Assembly: GCA_016190935.1 (NCBI GenBank) | Contig: JACPPP010000046.1 | Location: 20,317-84,316 of the forward strand | Reading direction: 5' to 3' | DNA: 64,000 nucleotides | DNA from: Armatimonadota bacterium | Lineage (GTDB): Bacteria; Armatimonadota; UBA5829; DTLH01 | Shown here: positions 2,531 through 53,100 of the stretch, one piece after another | Numbering within the stretch: position 1 is the first letter of the stretch | Layout of the letters: each line of letters opens with the position of its first letter | Program-made: the position numbers and the translations under genes | Notes under the pieces: generated by a model | Database searches by the model: none | The model's input: the letters and a program-made list of their open reading frames with translations, nothing else | What the model was told of the DNA's origin: nothing

Positions 2531-2627
2531 CCCTTTACTCCTAACCGCCTTAACGCCCCGGTCGAAACGCGAAAGGCACCTCGGTTTGCTCGTGGATAAG
2601 GCCCTCCCTCGGACTTGCGGCGCGCAT

Positions 2628-2915
2628 CTATGCGTCTCGCGCCGTATCGGTTCCGCAGATCGCCGTCTCGCAGCCAACGATCTCATCCGCCAGGTCGGAC
2701 CGCAGCTCGTCGTAGATGACATCGACACAACTGCGGTACAGCGCGGCCAGTCTGAGCGCATTGGTGGTGTCCGGCAGACAGGTTCCGTTCTCCCATCGGG
2801 AGACTATGCTGCTGCTGCTCAACCCCAGGGCTCGGGCCACATCCTTCTGGCTGAGACCCCTCTCCCTCCTATACCGCTTGAGGCGATTGCACACAAGTGG
2901 TGGTTTCATCGGCAT
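2628..2915 (-). CDS. XRE-family (Cro/CI-type) HTH transcriptional regulator
   Basis: MPMKPPLVCNRLKRYRRERGLSQKDVARALGLSSSSIVSRWENG is a classic HTH_3 motif. The upstream part of the track ORF (to 3377) is judged non-coding. Confidence 0.6.
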   Translation of the reverse strand: MPMKPPLVCNRLKRYRRERGLSQKDVARALGLSSSSIVSRWENGTCLPDTTNALRLAALYRSCVDVIYDELRSDLADEIVGCETAICGTDTARDA

Positions 2916-3576
2916 TCCTCGGTGCGGTTCACAAGGAACCAGCTTTGGCCATAAGCTACCAGAGAACCCGAGCCTGTACAAGGGGGTAAGAATTGCGCTA
3001 GACGGCAAGACGCTCTTGCCGTCTAGCACCGCTTTCCCTGCAAGTCGCCTGGGGCAGCTTCTCGTGTAGCCCGGCCCCCGCGAACTCTGGACGTCGGGCA
3101 GATAAGGAAGAAGCCAAGATCGGGCAATCGTCGGACTTAGGGACTCAGATCTAGCGACCACCCGCTCGCCGCAGTGAGACATATACGTAGAACACGTCGT
3201 CGAGGTCCGCGTTGCGCCGGACTGCACGGCCTTCTGCGTTTCGCTGACGGCCTGCTCAGGGCCATCGGAGAGCACTGCGGGATCTGGGACATAAGGCGAT
3301 TTCCATCCGGACCAATGGTGCACGCGGAAGCCCGTTTTCGCGACAGGGGATACCGCCAGAATGAGTCTCATTGGCATCAGTGCCCGGCTTGCGGGGCAGA
3401 AGGCAGCACGGACGTGTCGTTAGCGGCGAAGCAGCGTTCTGCCGTTCTGCCAGGCCGAATTCCGGCCGCCGGGAACAAGCCCAAGGGTTTGTCGCGATGC
3501 TTCCGCTCTGATGCGCCAGCTCGGACTCATCGCACTAACCAGTCTAGCACCCACATCCGCGTAACCAAACACATTT

Positions 3577-4362
3577 TCACGTGCATTCCTCAAAGCTGAT
3601 TCCCGCGAACCTGAATACGCGCAGTGAGTTTGACCGGACAATCTCCCACATCGAAGTTGGCTTTTCGGATAGCAGAACCGCCAACTCCGCCACCATGCGA
3701 GCTGTCTCTAGTGGAATCGAGCAGTTGTGGCCTGCCTTCATTAACGGGGAATCGGTTTCTGTTAGTATTCGATCTCTCGGTAGACTTTCTATCAGTGTTC
3801 GCCCGCGATCGGCAGTCAGCATTGCTGGATTGATTGAGAAGTAACAGCCAGTATCCCCTGCTCGTACAGCTTCCGCGACCGAGCCTGAAAACCAGTGCAA
3901 AATGCAGATCACATCTTCAGGAGCGGTATGTCCCTTTATCAATGATACAGTATCACGCGCCGCGCGCCGGCTGTGGACACTGACGACGCGACCGCCATAC
4001 CGTTGGGAGGCCGCGAGTGCACGCGCGAAGACGTCTTTCTGCCGCTCGTAGCTGCTGCGGTGTTGCGGGCTCCCGTCCAGTCCAACTTCGCCGACCAGAC
4101 GAGATTCGCCAATGTATTTCTCGAGCATGTCAATCTCTGCATAGCCCTCCGCGACGAGCTCTGGATGCAATCCAACTGCCGCATGCACATAGCGGCTGTC
4201 TTGCATCCAGAGTCTGTTCTGAGGCCAAGCGCGCGCCGTCGTCGTCACGGCAAGCACGGCGATCCGTTCCTGATCACAGCGCGCTATAAGTGCGGCCGGG
4301 TCGGGATGCAGATCGATGTGGCAGTGGAAATCAAAGCCCTTGACGGTCTCATCTCTGGTCAC
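3577..4362 (-). CDS. qatD: QatD, TatD-family metal-dependent hydrolase/DNase of a Qat anti-phage system
   Basis: N-terminal FDFHCHIDLH TatD motif and downstream conserved His/Asp/Glu pattern. ATGA overlap with the upstream QueC-like gene. Confidence 0.8.
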   Translation of the reverse strand: MTRDETVKGFDFHCHIDLHPDPAALIARCDQERIAVLAVTTTARAWPQNRLWMQDSRYVHAAVGLHPELVAEGYAEIDMLEKYIGESRLVGEVGLDGSPQHRSSYERQKDVFARALAASQRYGGRVVSVHSRRAARDTVSLIKGHTAPEDVICILHWFSGSVAEAVRAGDTGCYFSINPAMLTADRGRTLIESLPRDRILTETDSPLMKAGHNCSIPLETARMVAELAVLLSEKPTSMWEIVRSNSLRVFRFAGISFEECT

Positions 4363-5720
4363 GCTGTCTCTATCACCACATGCTCAACTATTGCGCCCAC
4401 TTCGGCGATGCCCCTGCGAAAGACTGCCGCGTACTCCGCGATTTCCGTCGCTGAATAGTCGGAGAGCGGCCCTGTCTTGTGCACCAGGATTTCTGCGAGA
4501 GCAGGAGCCTGTGCAAGGCGACGGCTCATCATCTGTAACGACCTCACGTCGGCTGATTCAGCCTGCCTGGCATCAAGGGCACGCTCCTTCAGGTCAGGGA
4601 TGAGGTATCTGGTCGGGTCATTGCCAAACGCCGCATGGATCGAAGCGCGGCGGATGAGGCACGGCACACAGTATCCGCAGTGACGTGGGGAAAGTCCCTT
4701 CCACCGCCCCTTCACGATGGACGAGCATGAGACCGTGATATCCATCGCTTCCCGCAGAAGAGCCTCATTGCGGCACTCGGCAAGCATTTCCCCCTTTGTT
4801 CTGAACCGATAGGGGTTCAGTAGCCGCGCGCCCAACCCAAGGTTATTGATAAGCTCCTGCCAGCGCGTCATGTAGAACGGGTGTGTAGTCCGCGTGCTCC
4901 ACGCTCCTAGCCGCAACGGATCGAGCGGAACATTCAGCGAGATGAGTCCGTTCTCCGGGACAAAGATCGGTGTCACGCCTTCCAGTGCACTTGCGGCCAG
5001 GCTAGCGAGTGCAAAGAAGATAAATGAGCGTCCCCGTGTAGTCGTCTCGGTCCCCATGTCCGCCATGTCATTCCTGTCAAAGCTCACATTCGCACGGACA
5101 CGCCGCGGACCCATATCCCCATAAACTTTGCCGAGCCTTGCCGCACAAGTCTCTTGGCTCTTGGTGCTCGCATCTCGGTAGTGACTGACGAACAGGGGAT
5201 TCCTTCCGGCTTCGAGAAGATCGATCGCGCCAACAAAGCTATCGAGCCCTCCCGAGAACAAGGAGACGCTATCAAATGTTGGACTTACCGGCTCAGACGG
5301 CCTGTCGATTAGCGTATCTATTTCCTTCTGTCTTGCGCGAAAAGAGACCCGCCAGATATCACCCGTGAGGAATTGCAGAATCCGCTCAATGAGATCGTCG
5401 TCCGCAGACCATCTTTCCGGTTCGGTCACGGGAACATAGAGATCGATCTCTCGCGTCCAACTGTCCTGCGCATCATCTGCCCGCGAAATCCGCGTGTCCG
5501 CTGCCGTGACAGTCGCGGCCAGGATTGCAAGATCGATAGCAGCCTCGGGCGGATACATACCGCGGTGGGCGAGCTGACCAAGCATCTGGCCGATCCCGTG
5601 ACCCACGCGGCGTTGTCCGTCGACGAAACGCAGCTCTGTGATCTGCGAGGATCTATCGCTGACGCGAACATTGTTCGTGTCGGCTGGGTTCAGCCGGACG
5701 ACTATGCTGTGACGTTTCAT
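4359..5720 (-). CDS. qatC: QatC, QueC-like PP-loop ATPase (7-cyano-7-deazaguanine synthase-like) of the Qat system
   Basis: SLFSGGLDSFVGAIDLLEAG PP-loop (SGGxDS) and C-terminal Cys cluster CGYCVPC typical of QueC. Start taken at internal Met 5720, which forms an ATGA overlap with the upstream gene stop. Confidence 0.8.
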   Translation of the reverse strand: MKRHSIVVRLNPADTNNVRVSDRSSQITELRFVDGQRRVGHGIGQMLGQLAHRGMYPPEAAIDLAILAATVTAADTRISRADDAQDSWTREIDLYVPVTEPERWSADDDLIERILQFLTGDIWRVSFRARQKEIDTLIDRPSEPVSPTFDSVSLFSGGLDSFVGAIDLLEAGRNPLFVSHYRDASTKSQETCAARLGKVYGDMGPRRVRANVSFDRNDMADMGTETTTRGRSFIFFALASLAASALEGVTPIFVPENGLISLNVPLDPLRLGAWSTRTTHPFYMTRWQELINNLGLGARLLNPYRFRTKGEMLAECRNEALLREAMDITVSCSSIVKGRWKGLSPRHCGYCVPCLIRRASIHAAFGNDPTRYLIPDLKERALDARQAESADVRSLQMMSRRLAQAPALAEILVHKTGPLSDYSATEIAEYAAVFRRGIAEVGAIVEHVVIETA

Positions 5721-6594
5721 GTTTCCCGGTCTCCCAGCACTTGCAGAAGGTTCCATGCGTCCAGATAGGTTCTGTCTACGACCTCACGGACTCCTTGATC
5801 CGACATGTTCGATAGCTGCGTCAGGTCTCCCCCAAAGGAGTCCCGCACGCTCCTCTCAATGTAACCCCTGAACTGCTCATCGAACCCTTGGATATCACCG
5901 AGGTCTTCGGCCAGGCTGAATCCGTTCACGCCAATCTCCTGATAGAGCCGCGCCTCGACGGTGTGTGCGACAAAGCTCAGGAAGATTTCCTGTACCTGTT
6001 CCGTTGACAGCGTCCCGAGATTGTCAATCCCAAACTGGTCCAATGCTGCAATCGTCTCCAGCCACGCATCCCGCGCGATTGCCTCATCGACGAGGCCACC
6101 GTCACGGCAGACGACCTCCGTCAAGCCGATGAATACGTCCTGCACACCTTGGCCCGACAGGCTTTCGAGGTTGAGTTGGCGCAGAGTCTCCTGCACTCCA
6201 TCGCGCTGAAAGCCCCGGAAAACGCCCAGTACATTGCTTGCCGCCGCACGCGATGGTCCCATGCGTCGAACCGCATTTCCGCTTCCGCCCGTGCCGCTGC
6301 GGACGTAGTCACGTACTGCTCTTCGAAGGCCCCTCCGTCGCTGCCGCCGGAGCCAGCGAACCGCGAGAAGTTCGACCGTGCGCTCCTGAAGCGCTCCGGC
6401 TCGGCAGGCGGCGGTAACAGCGGCCGCTTGTCGCTATCCCGGTCGCCGGGCGGGGGGACTTGACCGTCTGAACCGTCATCCGGTGTTTGCGAGTCATCAC
6501 CGCCGGGCAGCGGATCCGTGTCCATCCCGTCGAGCCAACTCGGCACGAGCGGTGTGTTTGATCCGGAGCCGGACGAAGAACCAGACGTCCCCAT
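5717..6594 (-). CDS. qatB: QatB-like protein, apparently split by a frameshift (track ORFs 6121-6594 and 5717-6262 in different frames)
   Basis: Start ATG at 6594 overlaps the QatA stop (ATGA). The N-terminal part is a Gly/Ser/Pro/Asp-rich low-complexity region; the C-terminal part (MGPSRAAASNVLGVF...helical) continues in another frame. The canonical Qat system has four genes, so two ORFs here suggest a frameshift (real or sequencing error). Confidence 0.45.
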
Positions 6595-8528
6595 CAGCCT
6601 GTCCCCTTCCCAAGTGCGGGCAATGCTGCGGATGCCGCTTGCTTAAGGAGCTTGTTGTCCTCCTGGTTTGCCCATCCCTGCACCACGTCCTGGAGTTCAC
6701 GCTTCGCCTTCTCTTCCGTGACAGATCCGCTCCAGCCCTTCACAACCCAAAGTCCCAGCCCCCTGGGATCAAGGCTGCCCAGCAGTTTCACGACTTCGCC
6801 CTGAAGCCTTGGATGATGTTTCGCGACGATCGACAGACCACCGATCCCCTGCGGTTCCTGCGTAAAGCTGCCGGCACCGAGAACCCGCTCACGAAGCGCC
6901 GCAAAGACGTTTTCAGCATCTCCCGGTGTGAGCGCTTTGACCTCAGCTTCGGCGGTTCGGACTTCCAACTGTGAGCCGCAGAGCTTTGCAATCAAGGCAT
7001 CCAGTCCGCTCGGTCCGCCAGCACTGGTCAGCAAGCGCTTGTCGCGCGCGACGAAAATGTAAGGACGCAAATCAGTGTCGCCGACCTGAGGCTGAATCGT
7101 GAGCCAGCGTTTGAGCCAATCACGCTCAAGCCATTTCTCTATCCCCGGTTCCACGGAGACCTTGTCAGTGGCAGTGTCTTTACCAGGCATCTCGTGCTCC
7201 GTGCCGTCGCGAGGCTCTTCTGCGAACCTTTCGAGGGCAACGATATCCCCCGCTTTGCCGTCGCCAGACGACATCGCCTGTGCCGCGACATGTTCGTAGA
7301 AATCGGGTTGGAAGCGTTCCGCCAGCATCAGCTTGGCCAGCACGGGCCGGCTCACCAGTTCATCGAATCCCCGGGCGCGCGCAATCAACTGCCGGAGCAA
7401 CAGCGCATTCAGGAATCGTTTGACCTGCCGCGGATTCCCCTTGGTCCCTTCCGCCAGGATGGGTGCTATCTGGTGCGCTAGGACGAACGCCGCGTTCAGC
7501 TCTTCGACTCTGGCGGGGTCCGTGGCCTGGACATCGCTTTGCGGAAGGTCCGTCCCGAGCCAAGGCTTTCTTAGACCCTCCTTCGCCTTTTCGAGCAAAA
7601 TGCCGAAGCCAGGATGATCTTCGCCGACAAGACTCTGCAGGAGCAGCAGCAGCACGTAGACACGTGTTTCCTGCGCGCCCAATGACGGGATTCGAAACGG
7701 TACTTGGATCAGCTTCTCAAGGTAGTTTCGTGCATACGGTAGTGGTCCGGACGCTGCGGGCAGATCAGGAAAGTGCTGCCGCACGGCGTATTCGATCATC
7801 GCCTCATCGGCGCCGATAACGAATGCGGTCTTTGGAACGAACAGAAACAGCCGAATGGCCTCCAGCGTTTGGATAGCAGTTGCCGGAAGACAGCGGTCGA
7901 GATCGTCGATCAAAACCACGAGCTGACCGATCTTTGCTTGGTCGAGCAGTTCCTGAAACTCCTGACGGAACGCGTGGATCGTTTCCGGCAGGTTGTCACC
8001 GTCCTCCGCTGGTTTCAGGAAGCCACCAATCGCCTCTAGCTGCGTCCGCACATCGGCAGGGTCGATATCCGCGACATTCTGAACCACGTTCTGTAGAGCA
8101 GCGACTGCACTGCCGATCTGATCCGGGGAAGGTAGACCCGTGAGGACATTGAACGCGCCGCCGCCGCATCGTTTCGCAACTTTCAGCCAGTCGACCCGCC
8201 TCAGCAGTCGGCCCGCCACCTCCCTAACCTTCCCTATGGTTGAGCGCTGTCGACACAGCTCCGTGATTGTGGACTCAATGAGAATGGTCTTCGCATCATC
8301 GAATCCTTCGAACGTCCAACCATTGAACCAGAGGACCGCAACATCCCCATCTTCCGCCAGCTCGCTTTCAATCATTTTGAGGACGCTTGATTTGCCTGCT
8401 CCCCAGTCGCCATGGATTCCGATAGTCACCGGACCGCTGCGGTTGACCTTTAGAATCTCGACAACAGTCTGCGAGATTGCCTCACAATTCAGGTAATCAA
8501 CTTCCGTCTCGTAATCTGGAATCAACAT
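6594..8528 (-). CDS. qatA: QatA, KAP-family P-loop NTPase of the Qat system
   Basis: Walker A in VTIGIHGDWGAGKSSVLKMIE and Walker B VVLIDDLDRC. The long helical C-terminal region is typical of KAP NTPases. Start chosen at Met 8528 (MLIPDYETE). Confidence 0.8.
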   Translation of the reverse strand: MLIPDYETEVDYLNCEAISQTVVEILKVNRSGPVTIGIHGDWGAGKSSVLKMIESELAEDGDVAVLWFNGWTFEGFDDAKTILIESTITELCRQRSTIGKVREVAGRLLRRVDWLKVAKRCGGGAFNVLTGLPSPDQIGSAVAALQNVVQNVADIDPADVRTQLEAIGGFLKPAEDGDNLPETIHAFRQEFQELLDQAKIGQLVVLIDDLDRCLPATAIQTLEAIRLFLFVPKTAFVIGADEAMIEYAVRQHFPDLPAASGPLPYARNYLEKLIQVPFRIPSLGAQETRVYVLLLLLQSLVGEDHPGFGILLEKAKEGLRKPWLGTDLPQSDVQATDPARVEELNAAFVLAHQIAPILAEGTKGNPRQVKRFLNALLLRQLIARARGFDELVSRPVLAKLMLAERFQPDFYEHVAAQAMSSGDGKAGDIVALERFAEEPRDGTEHEMPGKDTATDKVSVEPGIEKWLERDWLKRWLTIQPQVGDTDLRPYIFVARDKRLLTSAGGPSGLDALIAKLCGSQLEVRTAEAEVKALTPGDAENVFAALRERVLGAGSFTQEPQGIGGLSIVAKHHPRLQGEVVKLLGSLDPRGLGLWVVKGWSGSVTEEKAKRELQDVVQGWANQEDNKLLKQAASAALPALGKGTG

Positions 8529-8970
8529 GGAGACCTCACCGCCAACACGTACCTCGTGCTCACTGCCCTCTGCATCCAAACTAGGCCTGTCATCAAGTCT
8601 TCTCAAGCGACGGTTCGCTCTACACCCATTGTAGGATAAGCGGTGAAGCTGCTCGCCATCAACGCCAGCGCGACACTCCATCCGCTCTGAGCCGTACTCT
8701 AGAGCCTATGCATACGAGCGCTACTATCAGACCACCAATTGTATCATTCGCAGTCACATTCTTCCAATCCGAGCGAACCCAAGGATGTGTCAGCCGGGTA
8801 ACGGGCTCGATCGTTGCTGATTCGTCGTCGCTGGAGCTACATCGAGCCTGGGGAGAGGAGCAACCTCGGTCCACGCCCCGCTTGCACGCCAGCCTGCGTT
8901 TCTGCTATACTTTACCGACCCACAAAGGACGTTATGATGCACTATCCGATACAGCAGGAGGCCAGCAGTC

Positions 8971-9955
8971 TTGGCTACCGAAATCACTCCTTTCACCGGC
9001 AACGCCCTTGCCGGAAGGCACACTTTCATATTGCCTCGGGTCATCCAGGATGCCGGCGAGGACGCGTCCAGGCGGTTCCTGGAGTTCTTCACCGCAGATA
9101 TCAGGAATCCCAATACCCGCCCGCCAGGCATATGCCCGTGCCACAAGGGACTTCTTCCTCTGGTGCGAAAGGCACAGGTTGTCTCTGCATCAACTTGAGC
9201 CTATGCTCGTAGCGGCGTATATCGAGGAACTTCAGAGGTCTCAGTCCGCACCGACAGTGAAGCAGCACCTTGCCGCTATCCGGATGCTCTTTGATTACCT
9301 GGTGGTCCGCCAGGTAATCCCAATGAACCCGGCTGCATCAGTCAGAGGACCGAAGTATGTCATCAAGCGTGGAAAGACTCCTGTCCTATCGGCTACCGAC
9401 GCCAGGCGGCTCCTCGACAGCATCGATGTGTCCCAGGTGGTCGGGCTCCGCGATCGCGCGCTTATAGCTCTCATGGTCTACTCCTTTGCCCGGGTCAGTG
9501 CAGCAGTGAATATGCGCGTGGAGGACTACTACGCCAACGGAAAGCGCTGGTGGATCCGGCTTCACGAGAAGGGGGGCAAGTTTCACGAAGTCCCCGTGCA
9601 TCACAATGCTGAGGCCTATCTGGACGCTTATATAGCTGCTGCCGGCATCAGCGATGACCGCAGGGGTCCGCTTTTCCGAACTGCTGAAGGAAAGACCAAA
9701 GTGCTAACGACCCGCGCGATGACCAGGAACGATGCCCTGAGGATGATAAAGAGGAGGGCTGCAGACGCAGGACTCGCTGTTAACATCTCCTGCCACACAT
9801 CCCGGGCCACCGGGATCACTGCCTACCTGGAGAACGGCGGGACTATAGAAAACGCACAGGCAATTGCTGCGCATGAGTCTCCACGGACAACCAAGCTCTA
9901 CGACAGGACAACTGACCAGATAACGCTTGATGAGATCGAGAGAATAACCATATAG
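8971..9955 (+). pseudogene. Tyrosine recombinase/phage integrase (XerC/D-like) with an apparent +1 frameshift near 9118-9124 (extra C in a cccgcccgcc run); TTG start at 8971 preceded by aggagg
   Basis: Frame 1 from 8971 gives LATEITPF...RRFLEFFTADIRNPNTR, then stops at 9198. Frame 2 from 9122 continues RQAYARATRDFFLWCERHRL... through the catalytic region (R...HxxR...Y: HTSRATGITAYLENGGTIENAQAIAAHESPRTTKLYD). Joining the two after deleting one C gives the canonical ...NPNTRRQAYARATRDFF... motif. Confidence 0.6.
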
Positions 9956-10000: not shown

Positions 10001-11506
10001 TCACCGCAACATGAAAGACGGGGAGTAGCTTGGCTGTTGGTCTTCCATCAACTGTATCTCCTGACACACCGCATTGAACCGGTGGCCTAGAAAGCATGCG
10101 CCACTCAGCGGACCGAAGTAGTAGAGCAGCAGCTTCGTGGCACGCCATCTGCGCACAAACGCCCTTACCATATCCTTAGCCTCATCCGCAAGCGCAACCA
10201 GGTCTCCTGTGCTACGGATGCAGTCTCTACCCAGCTCGCGCTCAGGCCGAAGCAGCAACAGCGCTGCTATCTCCTCACTGCGTTCATGAAGATGCTCCCG
10301 CACTGCGTCGTCGATGGTGCCAGTCACACTTATACCAACGGCCACTGTCGTTCCGCTTCCATCAATGATCTCACCGTCGAAGTTACTCCCCTGATCGCTG
10401 ACTATCACCCTAAAACCATCGGCCTTTCGATCACTCGTGCGCCAAAGAACTCCGTTCTGGTCCACCTCAAGCGTGTATCCGGCTGCATCTCTGAACATAT
10501 GGCCAAACGCAAACCACGCGGAGAGCCTCGCCTTCCCTCGCACCCTGATCAGCCTCATGGAGGTAGACGCGCCCAGCTCGCACTTCAGCCTCTCCAACTC
10601 TGGCAGAAGGTGCTCATTCCAATCATACTGGGGCTGAAGTTGCCGACCCTTGGCGGCTGCACTACCTTCGAAGTAGTCGCACCAGTCGATCACGTAGTCG
10701 GGCTCAAGCTCATACTTCTCACGTACAATCGTGTTCAGGTGCACCGTGATGCATGGTTCCTGGCCTTGGGGCAGCAGGAGATCGTGCTTTCTCACAAGTT
10801 CATCCAGGTCATGCAAATACATGTCCTTCTTACTGGCCTTGATCCATTCCCTTACGATGCTCACGGCCAGCAGCAGTGCATCCTCATCTGGCCTCAGCCC
10901 AAGGCTGCACATCCGCTCGGCCACCAAATCGCGTAGGTCGTCGGCACCTGTTGAGCCGATCTTGAAGCGGATGCAGCCGGCAAACTCCCTCAGCTCGTCG
11001 GGACCGGCATCCAAATGAGAAAGCCAGTTCCCGTGTACCTCAGAATGCTCTTTGTGCTCAAAGAAGCTGGCTTTGATGCCTCCGTTTTCGTCCACGCAGG
11101 CGGTGAAGAACATATCATGTCGATCCCATGTCCAGTTGCTAACCAGATATAGTTCAATCGGGCCGGGCTTCGAGTCGCGTAGTAGCTTCCACGACCGCCA
11201 AAACTTCTGCAGTAGGCTCGATCTTTCTCTGGTGCGAGCCATCAGGACATCGCTGGAATACTGATTCCTTTGGTCCACGTGATACTTGATCTGGTAGAAC
11301 CGACTCGGTTTCAAGGTCTCAGGCTCGTACTCAATGGTAACGTCGTCCATTGATCCGGCTTCGGCATCCTCGATGCAGACTCGTCGGACCATCCTCTGCG
11401 GCATCTTCAGCTCGAGAGCCAACCACCAAGCGTAAAGGTGCTGATAATCATCGCCCTTTAGCCGCGCGATGACTTGATTCGCCATGTTATCCTCCATTCG
11501 GCGCAC
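10001..11506 (-). CDS. cap4: Cap4-like CBASS effector: N-terminal DUF4297-type restriction-endonuclease-like nuclease domain fused to a C-terminal SAVED domain
   Basis: C-terminal LLLYYFGPLSGACFLGHRFN resembles the SAVED/CHAT-like terminal motif. N-terminus has GDDYQHLYAWWLALEL...IEDAEAGSMDDVTIEY...QIKYH, consistent with DUF4297-like nuclease. Sits immediately downstream of a CD-NTase. Confidence 0.65.
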   Translation of the reverse strand: MRRMEDNMANQVIARLKGDDYQHLYAWWLALELKMPQRMVRRVCIEDAEAGSMDDVTIEYEPETLKPSRFYQIKYHVDQRNQYSSDVLMARTRERSSLLQKFWRSWKLLRDSKPGPIELYLVSNWTWDRHDMFFTACVDENGGIKASFFEHKEHSEVHGNWLSHLDAGPDELREFAGCIRFKIGSTGADDLRDLVAERMCSLGLRPDEDALLLAVSIVREWIKASKKDMYLHDLDELVRKHDLLLPQGQEPCITVHLNTIVREKYELEPDYVIDWCDYFEGSAAAKGRQLQPQYDWNEHLLPELERLKCELGASTSMRLIRVRGKARLSAWFAFGHMFRDAAGYTLEVDQNGVLWRTSDRKADGFRVIVSDQGSNFDGEIIDGSGTTVAVGISVTGTIDDAVREHLHERSEEIAALLLLRPERELGRDCIRSTGDLVALADEAKDMVRAFVRRWRATKLLLYYFGPLSGACFLGHRFNAVCQEIQLMEDQQPSYSPSFMLR

Positions 11507-11518
11507 ATTTTGGGCGCC

Positions 11519-12424
11519 TCACGATAGCGGGAACAACGGGCCAAACAGGTCTCGCCACGCCCTTAGCGCCTCTCCGTTCTTCCCGCTCTTTTCCAACTGA
11601 ATGGCCTGCGCAGCCGCGTATTGTGCATTGAGAAGCGCGGCTTTTGCCTTCTCGCGCTGCGAGTAGTCCATGCTATCACTTACCGCTGGCCCCAGCCCGG
11701 CAGGATCCGGCCATTCATCATGGATGCGGTCAGCAAGGGATGCGAAGAAGGACTTCATCTCATAGCGGAAATCGCCCTGGAAGCCGCCGTAGAGAACCTC
11801 CAGAGCCATAACCTCAATGAGGAAAGACGGTTTGATCGGCTTGCCCTGCTGGCTGTTCCACTTCTTCATCATACGGACGAGCCCTTTCCATTCTCCGGAA
11901 TACGCCCGCTGTGCCTCCACAGCCTTGTCGTAGTGGACCCTGGGGTTTGTCTTCACCCAGTCTGCCGTGATGGTGTCAGGGATATCGTAGTAGTCCTCCA
12001 GAGAAAAAGCCGGCACAACATCGAAGCTCATGACCTTACCATCTGTCTCATCGTCTACTGCCTGTACGCCGAAATCCACCGTTACTGACCGGCGCTGGCA
12101 GCTCACCCGGTTCGCGCCGTACTTGTCCGCGAGCACGTCACGAACCGCGCCGAGCACCTCAGACGGCAGGCTATCGCGGTAATGCCGTTCTTTCTCCCCG
12201 AGCACACAGAAGATGTCGACATCCTTCAGAGGCTTTGTTTTCGTCCACCTTGCATAGGAGCCTGTGAGGAAATCGTGCTCGATGTCAAAACAGCAGTCCA
12301 GGTAGCTGCGGATCTCCTTCTGGCGCCGCGAAGCATCTTGCTGCTCGCGGTCGCTCAGCTCAAGGCGGCTTCGGAGTGTTCGGAGAGCATCCGCTATGGT
12401 TATCATTGTTACACCCTCCTCCAA
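11519..12424 (-). CDS. cGAS/DncV-like nucleotidyltransferase (CD-NTase) of a CBASS system
   Basis: Nucleotidyltransferase signature GSYARWTKTKPLKDVDIFCVL (GS...DhD), about 300 aa. Operon context with TRIP13-like and SAVED proteins. Confidence 0.8.
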   Translation of the reverse strand: MEEGVTMITIADALRTLRSRLELSDREQQDASRRQKEIRSYLDCCFDIEHDFLTGSYARWTKTKPLKDVDIFCVLGEKERHYRDSLPSEVLGAVRDVLADKYGANRVSCQRRSVTVDFGVQAVDDETDGKVMSFDVVPAFSLEDYYDIPDTITADWVKTNPRVHYDKAVEAQRAYSGEWKGLVRMMKKWNSQQGKPIKPSFLIEVMALEVLYGGFQGDFRYEMKSFFASLADRIHDEWPDPAGLGPAVSDSMDYSQREKAKAALLNAQYAAAQAIQLEKSGKNGEALRAWRDLFGPLFPLS

Positions 12425-12909
12425 TAACCGGCTGACGCACTCAACCCGCTTCCGTCCACGGTCGTGCCTATGCTCTGCCGGACCAGTCCATCAGTAGATC
12501 GCAGTGTGGTGCTGCTCCAGCCGGATACGTCAGCGCGACCTGGCTTCGTGCTCGCGACGATCCGGTAGTCGCGGCTGCTGGGCCAGCATCCGGCTTTGAG
12601 AATGTGGTATTTCAGATCATCGGTATCGACCCAGAATGCGCCGTCACCGGTAAAGCTGTAGCAGATCGTGAAGTCCCATCTGCAGACGAGCCTGTCCGTT
12701 GACGGATTGAACACCTCAAGTACCAACTCAGTCAGGTCCCTGGTCTCAAGCCACCGCCTGAGGCCCCGTTCCAGCACAACCCACTCACCTGCCATCTTCT
12801 CCGGGCTGAGTCCGCTGGCGACGATGATGTCTTTCAGAGACATCAGCAGCTTGTCCGCGACATACGTCACGGAATGTGTGTATGTGTTTACCATAACTAC
12901 TGTGCTCAT
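12409..12909 (-). CDS. Small protein, putative bacterial HORMA-domain protein (Cap7/Cap8-like) of type III CBASS
   Basis: 166 aa, beta-rich. Assignment is by size and position between CD-NTase and TRIP13-like ATPase; no diagnostic motif recognised. Confidence 0.35.
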   Translation of the reverse strand: MSTVVMVNTYTHSVTYVADKLLMSLKDIIVASGLSPEKMAGEWVVLERGLRRWLETRDLTELVLEVFNPSTDRLVCRWDFTICYSFTGDGAFWVDTDDLKYHILKAGCWPSSRDYRIVASTKPGRADVSGWSSTTLRSTDGLVRQSIGTTVDGSGLSASAGYWRRV

Positions 12910-13373
12910 CGTCTGAAGAACGCCTCCTTACTGGCCACCGTATTCGCTTGGGTGGCATCCCGGCCTTTATCCGGTACGGCCTCCGCCAAATCGCGTGCGC
13001 TGACCCTGACCGAGCGCCGCGTGAGAGCAGCCTGAACCCATTGGAGATCCTCCGTTGGGCAGGGCAAGGACATGTGCCAATCCCCATCTGTTGGGCAAAA
13101 CGGAAGCGCCGACTCGCTGGCATCTTCGCCGGACACGGCGTCTTCGCCATAAAGGCAGTAGATCCGCACGCGGGGCCCGCTGCCCCATAGCACGATGGGC
13201 GCTTCCTTCATAGCTTCAGAAGCGATCAATGAGCTCGCTATTCCCGCGACGCCACTCAGTTCATCCCTGGCGTTGTTCGCGGACGCTGGTGCGAGCAGAT
13301 CGGCTATCGCAGCCCACGTATCTGCCGCAGACCGAACTGGCGACGAGATCACCCGCCTTGCTATTACTGTCAT
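12906..13373 (-). CDS. Small protein, putative second HORMA-domain protein of type III CBASS
   Basis: 155 aa, immediately downstream of the TRIP13-like gene with a 4-nt overlap. Assignment by context only. Confidence 0.35.
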   Translation of the reverse strand: MTVIARRVISSPVRSAADTWAAIADLLAPASANNARDELSGVAGIASSLIASEAMKEAPIVLWGSGPRVRIYCLYGEDAVSGEDASESALPFCPTDGDWHMSLPCPTEDLQWVQAALTRRSVRVSARDLAEAVPDKGRDATQANTVASKEAFFRR

Positions 13374-14350
13374 CTTGTCTCCTCCTGGATACCAGCAGAG
13401 ACACCCTTCTCGTGCTGCACAGCTCGCAGTAGGAGCTCCGCTGTCAGTCTGTTGGGGTCCAGAGCCGTCTCTTTGTCAAATGTGCACGCCGCTGGAACAA
13501 TCTTCCTTATGCGGCGACCATCAAGCCCCACGCACAATTCCGCCGCCGTCCTAAAGCGGGAGTCCGACAGGATCTTGCCTGCCCCTGTATAATGCTTGGC
13601 CAGCGCCTGTACCGCATCCGTTAGGATCTGCGTGCAAGCCTGAGCGTTAGGCATTCCGATGTTCAGGACTAGGTCCGCCCGCGATACGAAAGCAGCATCG
13701 ATAGCCCGGGGGAAGTTGCTAGTAGCGACGAACAGCAACCGAGGGTACCGCGCAGCCAGTTGGTCTAACTGAGCCAAGACGGCGTCGGTAGCACGATGCA
13801 CGTCAATGGGGTTTGCCTCTAGGCTCAGTTTGCTTCTATCGGCGGCAAGCGTCTCCACCTCGTCCAAGAGCACCACCAGCGGACCGCGTAGTGCCGGCTC
13901 CGCTATCGTGGTGCCCAGCAACTCGGTTACGGCTCTCTGGCTCTTGCCCAAGGCGGCGCTCGCTAGGGCGTGTGGTTCCACCTCAAGATAGGTGAAGTTC
14001 GAGTTCTTGCCGAAGACCTCAGCCGTCCTGGCGGCAAGTCCGCGCGCAAGCGATGTTTTGCCGGTTCCGGGCTCGCCTACCAACAAGATAACCCCGTGCA
14101 ACGGGATTGCAGCTTTGTCCACGGTAGGACGCAGCGTAAAACTCAAGATAGCCTGGCTGAGTAGCCGGTCCTTGAGCTGTTGATCCACTATGATCGAGTC
14201 CCAAAGCTTAAGGAACTCGCTATCGGGGAGCAGGCGGCTATCCAGAATCCCCTGGGCCTCTACACCCCCTGACATTGCTCCTGATTGCGCACCAGGTCGG
14301 GTGCGCCCCGTGCCAGGCGCCACGCCTGGCCGAAACCCGTTACTATTCAT
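13370..14350 (-). CDS. TRIP13/Pch2-like AAA+ ATPase (Cap6-like) of type III CBASS
   Basis: Walker A HGVILLVGEPGTGKTSLARGLA, Walker B VVLLDEVETL, sensor region FVATSNFPRAIDAAF. Start chosen at Met 14350, preceded by a ggaagga RBS on the coding strand. Confidence 0.75.
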   Translation of the reverse strand: MNSNGFRPGVAPGTGRTRPGAQSGAMSGGVEAQGILDSRLLPDSEFLKLWDSIIVDQQLKDRLLSQAILSFTLRPTVDKAAIPLHGVILLVGEPGTGKTSLARGLAARTAEVFGKNSNFTYLEVEPHALASAALGKSQRAVTELLGTTIAEPALRGPLVVLLDEVETLAADRSKLSLEANPIDVHRATDAVLAQLDQLAARYPRLLFVATSNFPRAIDAAFVSRADLVLNIGMPNAQACTQILTDAVQALAKHYTGAGKILSDSRFRTAAELCVGLDGRRIRKIVPAACTFDKETALDPNRLTAELLLRAVQHEKGVSAGIQEETR

Positions 14351-14466
14351 AAGTGTCTCCTTCCCGGAGCAGATGCTTGCGGTGTGGCCGTCACCCCACA
14401 CCGCTTGTCTACTCGCGGCCATTTGCGTTGCTACTCAACGCAAGCGTTTATTCATAAGAAAACCGC

Positions 14467-35042: not shown

Positions 35043-35299
35043 AGGGGCCTCCGTCTGGTTAAGCGTCCTCTCCGGGCTCAAAGAGGACGCGAGGCTGATA
35101 GCAGGGGACGAGCCTAGTGAGTACATGATGTATATCATTGGTCGGAGTCATTGTCAATAGCGGTGCAGTTACCCCCTTGGGCCCCTGGGCAAGCAAGTTG
35201 ATTTCGTTTCCGGCGGTGTGCTACTATCGATAGGCTTGGGAAGCTGGCGAAGGACGATCTGACTTCGTGATAGAGGGGAGTCGTCGGGAGGAACCAACA

Positions 35300-41783: not shown

Positions 41784-41789
41784 GGCTTG

Positions 41790-42587: not shown

Positions 42588-42668
42588 CTCTTTCTGAGTG
42601 TGGAGTAAAGGAGGCCGATCCTCCCTGTGGGGGAAGATCGGCCAGAGTGGTGGTGGCCCCGGCGGGAT

Positions 42669-43368: not shown

Positions 43369-44673
43369 GTGGCCGGGTGCTATAGTGGGTCCATGAGAGC
43401 AGACTGCCATGAAGACAATTCGATCACCCCCTTCGGGGTCACCGACTACCGGGACACGAGGCTCAGGTTCGGCATCAAGCGGAAGGATCGCCGGGGCCAT
43501 ATGTATGTCATCGGCCAGACGGGGACGGGCAAGTCCACGCTGATCGAGAATATGGCCATCTCGGACATCCTGCGGGGGGAGGGACTGGCCCTCATCGACC
43601 CGCACGGCGACCTGGCGGAGAGCCTTCTCGACTCGGTGCCCGAGAAAAGGTTGGAGGATGTCATCTACTTCAACGCGGCCGACTCCGAGTATCCCGTGGG
43701 CATCAACCCTCTGGACAAGGTGAATGCCGATCTCCGGTCCCTTGTCGCCTCCGGCCTCATTTCAGTGTTCAAGAAGATCTGGCCCGATTTCTGGGGTCCA
43801 AGGTTGGAGCACATCCTGAGGTACTCGTTGCTGACACTCCTTGAGCGCCCCGATAGCACGCTTCAAGACGTGCCGCCGCTCCTGACGGACAAGGGATTTC
43901 GGACGAAAGTGCTGAAGAGCGTCACCGACCGGCAGGTGCACAGCTTCTGGCTGCTGGAGTTCGACAAGTACACCGCGTGGCTCAAGTCCGAGGCGGTCTC
44001 GCCGGTCCTGAACAAGATGGGGCAGTTCCTGGCAAGCGTGCCGATCAGGAACATCGTCGGCCAGAGCCGCAGCAGCTTCAAGTTGCGGCAAGTGATGGAT
44101 GAGGGGAAGATCCTGATAGTCAGGCTTGCCAAGGGAAGGATCGGGGAAGACAACTGCGCTCTGCTCGGAGCGTTGATAGTCACCAGAATCATGCTCGCGG
44201 CGCTCAGCCGCTCAGACATACCAGAAGGAGAGCGCAGGCCCTTCTATCTCTACGTCGACGAGGTCCACAACTTCTTCACCGACTCGTTCATAGACATGCT
44301 GTCCGAATCCAGGAAGTATGGGCTGTGCCTGGTGCTGGCGCATCAGTATATCGATCAGCTCGACGAGAAGATGCGCTCGGCCATCTTCGGGAACGTAGGA
44401 ACGATCGTCTCCTTCAGGGTTGGAATGACCGACGCCAGAGTACTGGCCCAGCAGTTCGAGCCTGTCTTCGACGGGGCCGACCTCATCGGCCTGCCGAACC
44501 ATCACATCTACCTGAAGCTGATGATAGACGGGGTCACGTCCCGTCCGTTCAGCGCGAAGACACTACCGCCGGCCGCCGGAGCACACTCCTGGAGGAAGGA
44601 AATCACTGAGTTCTCAAGGGCGAAGTACGGGAGGCCGAGGCAGGAAGTCGAGCGTCAACTCATACGCCGGTAG
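43369..44673 (+). CDS. TraD/VirD4-like or HerA/FtsK-superfamily (DUF87-like) ATPase
   Basis: Walker A HMYVIGQTGTGKSTLIENM, Walker B FYLYVDEVHNFF. About 430 aa, divergent from the upstream operon. Confidence 0.5.
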   Translation: MAGCYSGSMRADCHEDNSITPFGVTDYRDTRLRFGIKRKDRRGHMYVIGQTGTGKSTLIENMAISDILRGEGLALIDPHGDLAESLLDSVPEKRLEDVIYFNAADSEYPVGINPLDKVNADLRSLVASGLISVFKKIWPDFWGPRLEHILRYSLLTLLERPDSTLQDVPPLLTDKGFRTKVLKSVTDRQVHSFWLLEFDKYTAWLKSEAVSPVLNKMGQFLASVPIRNIVGQSRSSFKLRQVMDEGKILIVRLAKGRIGEDNCALLGALIVTRIMLAALSRSDIPEGERRPFYLYVDEVHNFFTDSFIDMLSESRKYGLCLVLAHQYIDQLDEKMRSAIFGNVGTIVSFRVGMTDARVLAQQFEPVFDGADLIGLPNHHIYLKLMIDGVTSRPFSAKTLPPAAGAHSWRKEITEFSRAKYGRPRQEVERQLIRR

Positions 44674-50653: not shown

Positions 50654-51072
50654 AGTTGGCTGGCTCCACAGAAACTACAATGGCCGTCTGCCGCAACGAC
50701 GCATCGTGACGGACAGTGGACGTTGTATCGCGCCTGCTCGCCCACGGCATTATAGCATCAAAAGCTCTGCAATGGCCAGCCATCCAGCTATACTGGGTAT
50801 GACTACAGATGACTGTTGTTGACCAAGCTCTCATTGTCGGCGGTGATCCAGCAAGAGAGACGATAGCAGAACAGTAGTGATGGATAGGCGCAGGCAGTTC
50901 GGTTTGCCGAGCACACCGTCGAGCGAAGCAAGCGGCAACGCCTGGTGAAGGAGACACGCCTCCGGGCTTGACGGGGGTTGACGATCACCCTGCGGACTCT
51001 TTAGAATTTGGAGTGTCGGTTGACGCATCGTCTGCCGGTATGCAGCGCTGTCTGAATTGCGAGTGCGGGACC

Positions 51073-52554
51073 ATGGGTGAAGCAAAGCAAGTCGGAATCT
51101 GGATCCGAGTATCGACAGAAGACCAGGCTAGAGGCGAGAGCCCGGAGCATCACGAGAAGCGGGCACAGGATTACGCCGGGTTCAAGGAGTGGCAGGTCAG
51201 GGAGGTCTATCATCTGGAGGGTGTAAGCGGCAAGGCTGTCATGAGCCACCCCGAGACCCAGCGGATGTTGTCGGACATCCAGTCGGGACGCATCACCGGA
51301 CTTATCTTCTCCAAACTTGCTCGTCTCGCCCGCAATACGAGGGAGCTGCTTGAGTTCTCCGAGCTATTCAACGCTCACGGCGCAGACCTTATTTCTCTCC
51401 ATGAGTCCATCGACACCTCCACCCCTGCCGGCCGTCTGTTCTACACTATGATTGCGGCAATGGCTCAGTGGGAGCGCGAGGAGATCGCAGAGCGCGTTTT
51501 GGCTTCAGTACCGATACGCGCCAAGCTGGGTAAGCCGCTTGGAGGCAAAGCACCGTTCGGCTACCGCTGGGAAAACAAAGTCCTGGTTCCCGACCCCGCT
51601 GAAGCTCCGATAAGGAACCTGGTATATGAGCTTTTTCTCGAGCATCGCCGGAAGAAGAGGGTGGCCAGGCTCCTGAATGAAGCTGGCTACAGGACCAGGA
51701 GCGGAGTGGAATTCTCCCACTCGACGGTCAGCAAGATGCTGCGCGATCCCACGGCCAAAGGCCTTCACAGGGCGAACTACACCAGGCTCGTCAAGGGCCA
51801 GTGTGTCCTGAAACCAGAAAGCGAGTGGGTCTACACCACCGTCGAGGCTATCGTGCCGGAACAACTCTGGACCGAGTGCAACCAGATCCTTGATGACCAG
51901 GAGAAGCGCAACAAACGGCCAGCTCGCAAGACGGTGCAGCTCTTCAGCGGCGTCGTCCTGTGCAGTTGCGGCGGCAAGATGTATGTGCCTTCCAAGTCCC
52001 ACAAGTACACGTGTCGGAAATGCCTTGCCAAGATAGATGTCGACGACCTCGAAGAGGTATTCCACGAGCAGCTCAAAGCCTTCTTCCTCTCACCAGATGA
52101 GCTCGACAACTATCTGGCCAAAGCCGACCGGGTTATCCAGGAGAAGCAAGACTTGTTGCAGACCCGCTTCGATGAGGAGCGCAAGCTGAAGCAGGAAATG
52201 GACCGAGTCTACAGATTCTATATGGACGCGGAGATAACCCCAGCCGGCTTTGGGGCAAGATACAAGCCTTTGGAAGAAAGGCTGGCCCAAATCGAAGACC
52301 AGATCCCGGAGGTGCAGGCCGAGATAGACTTTCTCAAGATCCAATACCTCTCAAGCGACGAAATCCTGCACGAAGCCAGAGACCTCTATGCCAGATGGCC
52401 AGACCTTACTTACGAACACAAGCGTCAGATCATCGAAAGCATCACCCAGAGCATCATCATCGACAAGGACGAAGTGATCATCAACCTCGCCTACCTACCG
52501 TCGTCCTCGGAACTGATAGCAAAAAGTGCGACTAACCCTCGGGATGGGAGATGA
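51073..52554 (+). CDS. Large serine recombinase
   Basis: Start at ATG 51073 (MGEAKQVGIWIRVSTEDQ) with catalytic RVST. Recombinase domain, zinc ribbon (CSCGGKMY...CRKC) and C-terminal coiled coil. The upstream N-terminal extension in the ORF track is judged non-coding. Confidence 0.8.
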   Translation: MGEAKQVGIWIRVSTEDQARGESPEHHEKRAQDYAGFKEWQVREVYHLEGVSGKAVMSHPETQRMLSDIQSGRITGLIFSKLARLARNTRELLEFSELFNAHGADLISLHESIDTSTPAGRLFYTMIAAMAQWEREEIAERVLASVPIRAKLGKPLGGKAPFGYRWENKVLVPDPAEAPIRNLVYELFLEHRRKKRVARLLNEAGYRTRSGVEFSHSTVSKMLRDPTAKGLHRANYTRLVKGQCVLKPESEWVYTTVEAIVPEQLWTECNQILDDQEKRNKRPARKTVQLFSGVVLCSCGGKMYVPSKSHKYTCRKCLAKIDVDDLEEVFHEQLKAFFLSPDELDNYLAKADRVIQEKQDLLQTRFDEERKLKQEMDRVYRFYMDAEITPAGFGARYKPLEERLAQIEDQIPEVQAEIDFLKIQYLSSDEILHEARDLYARWPDLTYEHKRQIIESITQSIIIDKDEVIINLAYLPSSSELIAKSATNPRDGR

Positions 52555-53015
52555 ACACCAGGGTGAATGCGGACGGAATCGACATCAACCGCCAGTTTGC
52601 GACAAGACGCCCGGCGCCGGAGGCGGCGCTGATAATGCGCGCGCTCGAAGGCAGGTGCTTTGACCTTGTATTTGAGATGCACGAGGATGTGGACTCGAAC
52701 GGCTTCTACCTTTATGAACTTGTGGATGATCCGGCGGATTCGCTCGGAGAGGCAATAGTCGATGCTGTTGCCTCTTGCGGTTTTCCAATCAACTTCGACG
52801 AATGCATTGAGGGATCGGATGCTAAAGGAGGCATCATCAGGCCGAAGAAGTTCCGCTTCCGCAAGACACACCTGCCAAAAGCGGTCTATACTTACAGAGC
52901 ATGCGGCGGCCATGTCATCACATTGGCGCCGCCAGCGTCGACGCTTTCGTTCGAGGATAGGGTGAAGATTGAGCTGGCGGGGCTCAATGTCGCGCTCAAG
53001 TCGCTTCTCAGGTGA
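52551..53015 (+). pseudogene. C-terminal fragment of an M14-family (succinylglutamate desuccinylase/aspartoacylase-like) zinc peptidase gene, apparently 5'-truncated at the recombinase junction
   Basis: NADGIDINRQF (compare the DLNRNF motif of M14) and downstream FEMHED, but no upstream HxxE zinc-ligand segment. ATG overlaps the recombinase stop (ATGA). Confidence 0.4.
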
Positions 53016-53100
53016 CGGCACCAGGTTCATGTTGAAACAATGGACAAGCGGTTGCGAGAGGAGAACGTGGCGGGGAAGCGAGAGCCGGCTAAAGGATCCA

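Follow-up and report, generated by a model that had tools for sequence, protein, structure and literature searches.

Actinomycete integrative and conjugative elements (AICEs) are made up of an integrase, a Rep protein and an FtsK-like translocase, and defence islands carried on mobile elements are well established. In the SCCmec-associated defence arrays of staphylococci, as far as the account in PMC11470126 covers them, large serine recombinases (LSRs) of the Ccr type, including tandem or paired ones, are found at the edge of side-by-side defence cassettes. Tn7-like transposons (PMC8649781) and pipolins (PMC11551731) combine a conserved mobility backbone with variable slots that are enriched in defence genes. 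Here, a stretch of 64 kb (the window; positions 20,317–84,316 of contig JACPPP010000046.1, assembly GCA_016190935.1) was examined. It is part of an 85,079-bp metagenome-assembled Armatimonadetes contig, and all searches of the window cover these 64 kb. At least five anti-phage systems are clustered between 2.6 and 52.5 kb, and this array is likely to be the cargo of LSR-type mobile DNA, the right-hand junction of which was mapped. Positions 1–52,524 would represent the interior and right end of integrated DNA of the LSR superfamily, either one rearranged element or two fused elements. An earlier reading made from the letters alone (the sequence-only reading) had described the region as composite, horizontally acquired and rich in defence genes, which is supported. 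It had also described a chromosomal hotspot receiving independent modules, and here the evidence favours instead a cargo in one or more LSR-type backbones inserted in an M14-like peptidase gene.

The two intact LSRs of the window, LSR-A (531 aa; 33019..34614, minus strand) and LSR-B (493 aa; 51073..52554, plus strand), likewise lie at the edge of side-by-side defence cassettes. Within the limits of the account cited above, the SCCmec arrays differ in their LSR families (LSR-B has no relative above ~28% identity in PLSDB), in their target gene (orfX, as against an M14-like peptidase gene in the window and comM-like genes in its relatives) and in their hosts, which are uncultured phyla in the case of the window and its relatives. 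They differ also in the backbone, which in the window includes an ATPase resembling type IV coupling proteins (T4CP), a Cas4-like nuclease, a MoxR/metallopeptidase pair, an HTH_36 protein and RuvC. With integrative and mobilizable elements (IMEs), integrative and conjugative elements (ICEs) and AICEs the window has in common an integrase, a replication-initiator-like protein, a single ATPase of the FtsK/T4CP family and variable cargo. In contrast to these elements it has no relaxase, type IV secretion system (T4SS) or recognisable oriT, the ATPase seemingly has no membrane anchor, and its role in transfer is putative. Tn7-like transposons and pipolins share the arrangement of backbone and slots with the window but use TnsABC-type transposases, or pPolB with a tyrosine recombinase, where the window uses an LSR.

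The evidence for insertion comes from the right edge. The C-termini of the LSR-B family are conserved as far as the motif SSE(L/M)(I/M), after which the tails vary by target. Two elements found beside M14 fragments share one tail, and two found beside truncated ComM-like genes share another. Because the tails diverge by target at this point, the predicted crossover is at 52,521–52,527, and the last ~10 codons of LSR-B lie beyond it. Homology to M14 proteins begins at nt 52,527, where the 3′ half (~160 codons) of an M14-type metallocarboxypeptidase-like gene is found (52527..53015, plus strand), with a premature stop at its third codon. The open reading frame (ORF) at 52551–53015, which overlaps the LSR-B stop, matches 464 representative proteins of 250–290 aa at residues ~100–260 (the C-terminal 60%), and a full-length homologue of the remnant matches solved structures of M14 metallocarboxypeptidase-like proteins. 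A hidden Markov model (HMM) of the C-terminal half of the M14 family matched 52536–53012 (E 1e-51), while the model of the N-terminal half, run against all six frames of the window, returned nothing except a chance Walker-A match in QatA. Two weak tblastn matches at 38437–38526 (minus strand) were considered as a degraded 5′ remnant and rejected, as the N-half model was negative. LSR-B is thus a recombinase at the edge of the insert and beside a disrupted target, as is characteristic of an LSR element, and the right end lies at recombinase B, where it had previously been placed. Since the 5′ half of the M14 gene is absent from the window, the DNA to the left of the junction is an insert of at least 52.5 kb in an M14-type gene, unless the far junction has been deleted. 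LSR-B, which reads across the junction at the extreme right, would have inserted this DNA into an M14-type peptidase gene of the Armatimonadetes chromosome.

Such a junction could in principle arise in assembly or binning, if the contig were a chimera of mobile-element and chromosomal reads and its frameshifts were likewise non-biological. A metagenome-assembled source, two single-base frameshifts in G+C-rich runs and LSR homologues that are often on short contigs, as is typical of repeats that break assemblies, would all fit this explanation. However, the same junction is present in a metagenome locus from an independent sequencing run and assembly (L096), where an LSR 79% identical to LSR-B is followed by an M14 fragment 68% identical to that in the window, with ~80% DNA identity. 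A chimeric origin is therefore considered very unlikely.

Both LSR-A (Resolvase, Recombinase and Zn_ribbon_recom domains) and LSR-B (Resolvase and Recombinase domains) are intact and have the catalytic serine, and the motif R-V-S-T-E-(E/D)-Q can be read in each. Among the matches listed, the best 120 relatives of LSR-B are 65–79% identical across phyla, and those named come from Armatimonadetes, Aerophobetes, Planctomycetes, Chloroflexi, Deltaproteobacteria, Aminicenantes and Scalinduaceae. The best 120 relatives of LSR-A among the matches listed are 55–67% identical and cover a similar range of phyla. No close relatives of either were found in the PLSDB plasmids or in IMG/VR. Many members of both families are on short contigs, and LSR-B variants of ~650 aa carry added XRE-type HTH domains. 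LSR-B homologues were also found abutting truncated ComM-like (ChlI/Mg_chelatase) genes of 349–351 aa on Aminicenantes-type and other contigs (L097, 11475–12524; L099, 11472–12527), so that among close LSR relatives at least two distinct conserved genes serve as targets. For LSR-A, unlike LSR-B, no junction between recombinase and target was seen. Homologues of the A and B types report the same longest-contig figures (202,380 and 77,178 bp) and the two types probably share two other contigs; the two genes were never seen together in one retrieved locus.

Genes at the far left of the window make up one part of the backbone. All are on the minus strand, and from the edge inwards they encode a sigma-70-like factor that is cut by the window edge (1..469; Sigma70_r2, E 2e-6; PHROG sigma factor, E 4e-17), a RuvC resolvase (740–1300; Pfam RuvC, E 1e-14), a RuvC-like paralogue (1297–1797; Pfam RuvC, E 0.008), an HTH_36 replication-initiator-like protein (1763..2530, in an ORF reaching 2761; HTH_36, E 1e-10; PHROG replication initiation, E 6e-13) and an XRE-type regulator (2628..2912, in an ORF reaching 3377, with HTH_31/HTH_3 at ORF residues 164–215 and a real gene of ~94 aa). 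In L096, an XRE gene, an HTH_36 gene, a RuvC-like gene, the LSR and the M14 fragment are found in a row, and the three genes directly upstream of the LSR are 59, 51 and 46% identical, respectively, to the XRE, HTH_36 and RuvC-like genes of the window. With identities of 46–59% beside an LSR-B homologue, the earlier assignment of the left 2.9 kb to a mobile-element backbone is well founded.

A second relative, L101, carries within ~10 kb a metallopeptidase gene (56% identical, on the opposite strand), a T4CP-like gene (65%), an LSR-A homologue (59%), a PHP/SMC-like gene and genes for XRE (48%), HTH_36 (49%) and RuvC-like (30%) proteins. Its order and orientation match the minus-strand series of the window that runs from LSR-A to the XRE, HTH_36 and RuvC-like genes, and the slot that holds one SMC-like gene in L101 holds 30 kb of defence genes in the window. 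Three further loci (L097, L098 and L099) each carry the T4CP-like gene at a distance of 3–10 kb upstream from an LSR-B homologue. The cargo in the interval varies, and a Cas4-like or metallopeptidase-like gene is oriented divergently from the T4CP-like gene, whose copy in L099 runs off the edge of the locus. The window from 41.8 to 52.5 kb (Cas4-like and T4CP-like genes to LSR-B) matches this layout. The two backbone sets of the window lie in opposite orientation, which therefore indicates either two fused related elements or one rearranged element with two LSRs. The backbone would then be spread over the region as the sigma factor, RuvC, RuvC-like, HTH_36, XRE, LSR-A, metallopeptidase/MoxR/Cas4-like, T4CP-like and LSR-B genes. 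One cargo slot of ~30 kb, from LSR-A to the XRE gene, would hold the Ssp and BREX-related genes described below, a GHKL pair, a type III cyclic oligonucleotide-based anti-phage signalling system (CBASS), Qat and a decayed tyrosine integrase. A second slot, from the T4CP-like gene to LSR-B, would hold an MBL hydrolase gene, a Ppl-like gene and an unknown gene.

The T4CP/TraD-like, HerA-related ATPase of the window (43369..44673, plus strand; TrwB_AAD_bind, E 1e-10; TIGR03743, E 4e-16) has no transmembrane N-terminus that is apparent by eye. Its relatives were always found near an LSR, with identities of 66% in L097, 68% in L098, 65% in L101 and 51% for the partial copy in L099. Divergent from it on the minus strand are genes for a topoisomerase Top1-type C4 zinc-ribbon protein of 125 aa (42669–43046), a Cas4-like PD-(D/E)XK nuclease (41790–42587; PADLOC Cas4), an AAA_5/MoxR ATPase (40275–41783; profile match) and a 596-aa HEAGH metallopeptidase-like protein with a possible VWA region (38644–40434; weak peptidase PHROG matches). 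Genes divergent from the T4CP-like gene in L098 and L101 share 62 and 56% identity, respectively, with the metallopeptidase part, and L097 has a Cas4-like gene in the equivalent position. A 124-aa gene also occupies the position of the zinc-ribbon ORF in L097, and no sequence similarity was detected between the two. Within the block (38644–43046), PADLOC returned no match beyond Cas4. Since this block and the T4CP-like ATPase are repeatedly found together with these LSRs in other phyla, they are part of the backbone and the block is not a recognised defence system, although it had been taken for a VWA-MoxR-nuclease defence locus; no profile match supported the VWA label. The T4CP-like ATPase and the Rep-like protein would plausibly move or replicate the element.

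Several of these genes, namely those for the sigma factor, RuvC, the replication-initiator-like protein, the Cas4-like nuclease and the T4CP-like ATPase, match PHROG families, and LSRs are common phage integrases. On this reading the defence genes would be morons of a defective prophage. The 52 kb, however, contain no gene for capsid, portal, terminase or tail proteins, and IMG/VR scans with LSR-A, LSR-B, the T4CP-like gene or its alignment returned nothing closer than 34% identity. For the ATPase, no phage relative exceeds 30% identity. A prophage origin is considered very unlikely.

The right flank (53101..64000) looks chromosomal and encodes, on the minus strand, a URO-D-like protein, an MFS transporter, a GH38 alpha-mannosidase, an SDR protein, a zinc ADH and a 1191-aa CarboxypepD_reg repeat protein. 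The last of these (60414–63989, minus strand) consists of three copies of a ~357-aa unit, with DNA repeats 1065–1071 nt apart that are 71–73% identical, and looks like an ordinary repetitive surface protein. The G+C content is 0.576 in the insert and 0.544 in the flank. The mean tetranucleotide distance from 3-kb windows of the insert to the flank was 0.26, as against 0.223 from flank windows to the rest of the flank, and it was 0.248 from flank windows to the insert, as against 0.185 from insert windows to the rest of the insert. Given overlapping 3-kb windows and a flank of only 11.5 kb, the signal is a modest one. The composition comparison called for by the sequence-only reading thus showed a modest difference. 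Direct repeats, which it had also proposed to look for beside 35.0–35.3 and 52.5 kb and at the left window edge, were not found; around the recombinases and at the window edges the only matches were of 18–40 nt and at chance level. Direct repeats are not expected for serine recombinases. A 19-nt inverted pair at 1302/9929 was dismissed as a chance match.

Several observations weigh against the reading of the array as cargo of inserted LSR-type DNA. In L101 the T4CP block has the opposite orientation relative to LSR-A, and a simple single-element model does not fit. Neither the left junction nor the 5′ half of the M14 gene was seen in positions 1–52,500 of the window by HMM or tblastn, and the 5′ half may lie in the other 21 kb of the contig. 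No relaxase, T4SS or capsid domain was found in the scanned ORFs of the window, and of the functions that define an ICE or IME only the T4CP-like ATPase is represented. The compositional contrast is small and is measured against an 11.5-kb flank. No empty site was found when the flank genes were used as queries, and neither query returned a close relative: the best relative of the GH38 gene in 185,579 GTDB species genomes is only 38% identical, and the 473 relatives of the URO-D gene in JGI metagenomes (70–76% identical) have no shared synteny. The frameshifts in QatB and the integrase, the truncation of a further LSR (LSR-X, below) and the stop in the M14 remnant suggest decay, or could be errors in the metagenome assembly, and mobility or function of the array may be partly lost. 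We infer, on the arrangement of genes, that everything to the left of 52.5 kb belongs to one insert; that it is still mobile is a more guarded proposal given the decay in QatB, the integrase and LSR-X. A transfer role for the T4CP-like ATPase and an order in which the modules were acquired are likewise only suggested by the arrangement.

The recombinases bear on a further explanation, in which small elements or cassettes were inserted serially at one permissive chromosomal locus and the recombinases are the scars that they left. The presence of more than one recombinase module, proposed previously, is supported. The tyrosine integrase, LSR-A and LSR-B that had been recognised are all present, but the count of three omitted the remnant of a fourth recombinase, LSR-X (34683..35138, minus strand). 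This is the N-terminal part of an LSR, 33% identical (E 1.6e-16) to a 516-aa LSR in the locus L102, with a weak Resolvase match (E 0.015) and a catalytic serine motif that is degenerate by eye. In L102 the corresponding position is taken by the intact 516-aa LSR, and the LSR-A homologue downstream of it is embedded among CBASS, HEPN and KAP-NTPase genes. The window thus has four recombinase genes of three unrelated types, and LSR-A and LSR-B are only 24% identical. The tyrosine integrase (9002..9955, plus strand; Phage_integrase, E 3e-19) falls precisely at the boundary of Qat and CBASS, and the integrases closest to it come from plasmids. The Ssp-containing unit adjoins a tyrosine integrase elsewhere, and G+C content differs among blocks, from 0.56 to 0.605. 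All of these speak for a hotspot. Against it, genes at both ends and in the middle of the region are homologous to one backbone that is contiguous in L096 and L101, and the sole mapped junction implies that the two halves of the target, of which the 5′ one is missing, are at least 52.5 kb apart. With the possible exception of a PHP-PD40 gene, the region contains no host-type housekeeping gene. Serial insertion at a hotspot is accordingly judged unlikely, and the array is better read as cargo of LSR-type mobile DNA, in which the segments at 32.2–35.1 and 50.4–52.6 kb are integrase modules of larger units and not small nested elements; at least two nested or adjacent elements had been suggested there.

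That an HTH gene accompanies each LSR was correctly predicted. The two HTH_17 (excisionase-family) proteins (32246..32461, minus strand, HTH_17 E 4e-16; and 50429–50653, minus strand, in the variable slot) are 54% identical to each other, and the first is 92 bp upstream of sspB and 558 bp downstream of LSR-A. In three cases an HTH_17 gene heads a defence operon on the minus strand: ahead of sspB, ahead of the pair formed by the 362-aa and Ppl-like genes and, in L102 (18633–18818), ahead of a giant KAP NTPase gene. These proteins may be operon regulators rather than excisionases paired with the LSRs. HTH_17 was also considered as a conserved component of the Ssp-containing unit and rejected, as it is absent upstream of sspB in the three other loci with this unit (L092, L094 and L095).

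The PHP-PD40 gene (35267..37912, plus strand; Pfam PHP and PD40) encodes a protein in which a hydrophobic N-terminus, by eye an apparent signal peptide, is followed by PHP and PD40 beta-propeller regions. The gene is located between the two backbone sets and has no PADLOC match and no counterpart in the related elements; it may be unrelated cargo or a host gene left stranded. Non-coding stretches of 560–730 bp are found at borders between backbone and cargo (2913–3576, 32462–33018 and 37913–38643). They show neither an Rfam match nor a surplus of promoter-like or terminator-like sites, and could hold att-like or regulatory sites. A promoter and terminator scan of 32–39 kb gave counts at background level. 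No tRNA genes were found in the window, nor any Rfam family at the gathering score; an Rfam match to a long non-coding RNA (E 0.019) was judged spurious. A megablast search with positions 1–25 kb of the window found no match in plasmids.

Turning to the cargo, its largest part is a nine-gene unit (18710–32154), which combines features of described systems. In BREX-related capture (BRC; Rakesh and Krishnan 2026, PMC12839542), where BREX denotes bacteriophage exclusion, a HerA/FtsK translocase is universal in the family while TGT and/or GNAT genes are present in only a subset of loci, and the BRC section of that paper does not list a PAPS-reductase component. In the SspABCD-SspE/SspFGH systems, SspB (DUF4007), SspC (BrxC-like) and SspD (PAPS reductase) are found, and type 4 BREX (brxPCZL) has a PglZ-like partner. 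The occurrence of sspBCD near brxCZL was noted in 40 genomes (bioRxiv 10.1101/2024.06.03.597175).

All nine genes of the unit are on the minus strand. The first five encode a HerA-like ATPase (18710–19909; DUF87, E 1e-13), a PglZ-like protein (19919–21046), a 1344-aa BrxC-like ATPase (21043–25077), a 169-aa P-loop NTPase (25067–25576), which fits the published alignment of BRC STAND NTPases by eye, and a 305-aa protein in the position of a BRC gene (25586–26503). They are followed by genes for a 179-aa reader with a sulfur-binding domain (SBD; 26427–26966; NF045808 N-terminal domain, E 3e-9; PF26340 is listed as weak for an orthologue), SspD (26985–27779; PADLOC, E 4e-110), SspC (27783–31247; E 6e-299) and SspB (31213–32154; E 4e-93; DUF4007, E 3e-84). 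All nine are colinear in a Dehalococcoidia contig (L092, 3042–16383), where they are 57–84% identical and in a different context. L095 has all nine genes in the same order and L094 has seven, the SBD-reader and 305-aa genes not being called, and both are in unrelated contexts. Since the genes recur in the same order in other contigs, the Ssp/PglZ locus, which was rightly noted as present, is one conserved nine-gene system. The BrxC-like family has 111 matches in Chloroflexi, Deltaproteobacteria, Bacilli and other groups.

The five genes at 18710–26503 match in order a locus on a Haloplanus sp. HW8-1 plasmid (GenBank accession number NZ_CP098519.1, 108453–117791). The order there is TGT, a 282-aa protein, a small NTPase, a 1363-aa BrxC-like protein, a 380-aa protein, HerA and GNAT, adjoining queC, queE and queD. 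Identity to the Haloplanus proteins is 49% for HerA, 32% for the PglZ-like protein and 22.5% for the BrxC-like ATPase. The BRC operon set of a short PglZ counterpart, a BrxC-like ATPase and a small STAND-type NTPase is therefore present together with the HerA translocase, and the BRC core of a ~300-aa protein, small STAND-type NTPase, ~1350-aa BrxC-like protein, ~375-aa PglZ-like protein and HerA-like ATPase is in the same order as in the window. The Pfam PglZ model did not match the PglZ-like protein of the window, in which the PglZ-type motifs DGL, DHG and HGG..S..E..VP can be read by eye; a single-sequence AlphaFold model of it was unusable (mean pLDDT 32.7). The 305-aa protein was tried as a relative of DUF4007 and rejected, as hhalign with four-sequence profiles found no similarity between it and SspB.

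The difference from BRC lies in the modification genes. The TGT and GNAT genes are absent in the window and in L092, L094 and L095, and the window has no preQ0 genes; SspB, SspC, SspD and the SBD protein are found instead, which implies marking with phosphorothioate and not with 7-deazaguanine. PADLOC found no match to SspA, SspE, SspF, SspG or SspH among the neighbouring genes, only to SspB, SspC and SspD. Compared with the Ssp systems and type 4 BREX, the window is without these five and without BrxL, SspB and SspD are separate genes and not a BrxP fusion (SspD matches BrxP weakly, E 1e-9), and it adds a second BrxC-like ATPase, a HerA ATPase and a stand-alone SBD reader. The unit does not, therefore, qualify as type 4 BREX. 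Judged from gene content, the window carries a BRC core joined to SspBCD and a predicted phosphorothioate reader that replace the TGT/GNAT module. This Ssp-BRC combination is not described in the literature searched, although the preprint cited above does mention sspBCD close to brxCZL, and it appears to be new. SspBCD, with a host cysteine desulfurase, would mark self DNA with phosphorothioate, the SBD protein would read this mark, and the BrxC-like, PglZ-like and HerA proteins may act on unmarked DNA.

The remainder of the large slot holds further recognised systems. QatD, QatC, QatB and QatA (3577..8681, minus strand; PADLOC QatA 2.8e-250, QatC 1.7e-178, QatD 1.6e-84) are all present, with QatB split near 6262–6270 by a frameshift that could be a sequencing error: profile positions 1–112 fall in an ORF at 6121–6594 and positions 112–291 in an ORF at 5717–6262. 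The tyrosine integrase beside Qat is also frameshifted, as had been noted. Intact plasmid integrases of 321–326 aa (56–68% identical) align to its main frame only from ~nt 9122. The N-terminal motif is encoded at 9031–9120 in another frame (70% identical, E 8e-10), with an extra C in a C-rich run at ~9118–9127, and an initial view of the integrase as intact was abandoned on account of this motif. The frameshifts in QatB (6262–6270) and the integrase (9118–9127) are both single-base events in G+C-rich runs, and may be real decay or errors of the metagenome assembly.

A complete type III CBASS follows (10001..15400, minus strand), with genes for a Cap4-like SAVED endonuclease (E 7e-77), a CD-NTase (cyclase, E 3e-132), HORMA2 and HORMA3 (E 5e-73 and 6e-56), TRIP13 (E 7e-131), CapP and an XRE-type CapH. 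Next to it, a PDC-M14A-like protein and a GHKL ATPase with a Shedu/DUF4263-like nuclease region are encoded (15465..18459, minus strand; PDC-M14A, E 5e-18; HATPase_c_3, E 4e-16; SduA, E 9e-7), a candidate defence pair on the basis of these matches. The second slot contains, all on the minus strand, an MBL/beta-CASP hydrolase gene (44811–46370), a gene for a Ppl-like PHP-SMC protein (46429–49017; PADLOC Ppl, E 2e-46; Pfam PHP, SMC_N and AAA_23), a gene for a 362-aa unknown protein (49205–50293) and the second HTH_17 gene. The product of the Ppl-like gene has the architecture expected of Ppl, in which one polypeptide combines a PHP domain at the N-terminus with an SMC/ABC-type ATPase. In L097, L098 and L099 this slot holds different genes, often for defence or restriction-modification. 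PHP-SMC or SMC-like genes of this kind were seen in four elements (window, 46429–49017; L097, 1–1009; L099, 3595–6333; L101, 11905–15063), and their recurrence suggests a role close to that of the backbone or a favoured cargo.

Every block that the sequence-only reading had named was confirmed in its place by PADLOC or Pfam profile matches, and several independent recognised systems lie together, as in a defence island, with strong PADLOC scores for Qat, type III CBASS, SspBCD and Ppl and a candidate in PDC-M14A. The view that nearly every gene is defence-related went too far. There is a real cluster, but by our own count from the ORF list and annotations only ~23 of the 39 genes between 2.6 and 53.1 kb, covering ~29 of 50 kb, belong to recognisable defence systems, and ~12 genes are for mobility or backbone functions. 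Nearly all genes are indeed on the minus strand (34/39), LSR-B being on the plus strand. As all 10 flank genes are also on the minus strand and GC skew is negative over the entire window, the strand bias is real yet not specific to the island.

Taken as a whole, the island would be a portable, multi-layer immune cargo that the LSRs integrate and presumably excise. A broader proposal, held tentatively and at somewhat less than even odds, is that there is an undescribed family of LSR elements that crosses phyla and has a phosphorothioate-coupled BRC as its largest cargo here. The LSRs of this family would be those that are 55–79% identical between Armatimonadetes, Chloroflexi, Planctomycetes, Aminicenantes, Deltaproteobacteria and others; its members would share the T4CP-like, Cas4-like, MoxR/metallopeptidase, HTH_36 and RuvC backbone, insert in M14-like or comM genes and carry large anti-phage arsenals. 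Current ideas are not overturned by this; what seems new is the particular form of the element family and of the phosphorothioate-coupled BRC unit. The region is a testable example of many defence systems travelling together in uncultured phyla, in which cargo slots can be recognised and an insertion junction was mapped. With their targets in conserved genes and their unusual degree of conservation across phyla, the LSR families could be of interest in the search for new site-specific integrases. The nine-gene Ssp-BRC unit links phosphorothioate epigenetics with BREX-related systems. If the broader proposal is true, the unit is a natural experiment in swapping the modification module, with phosphorothioate here and 7-deazaguanine in the BRC loci of haloarchaea.

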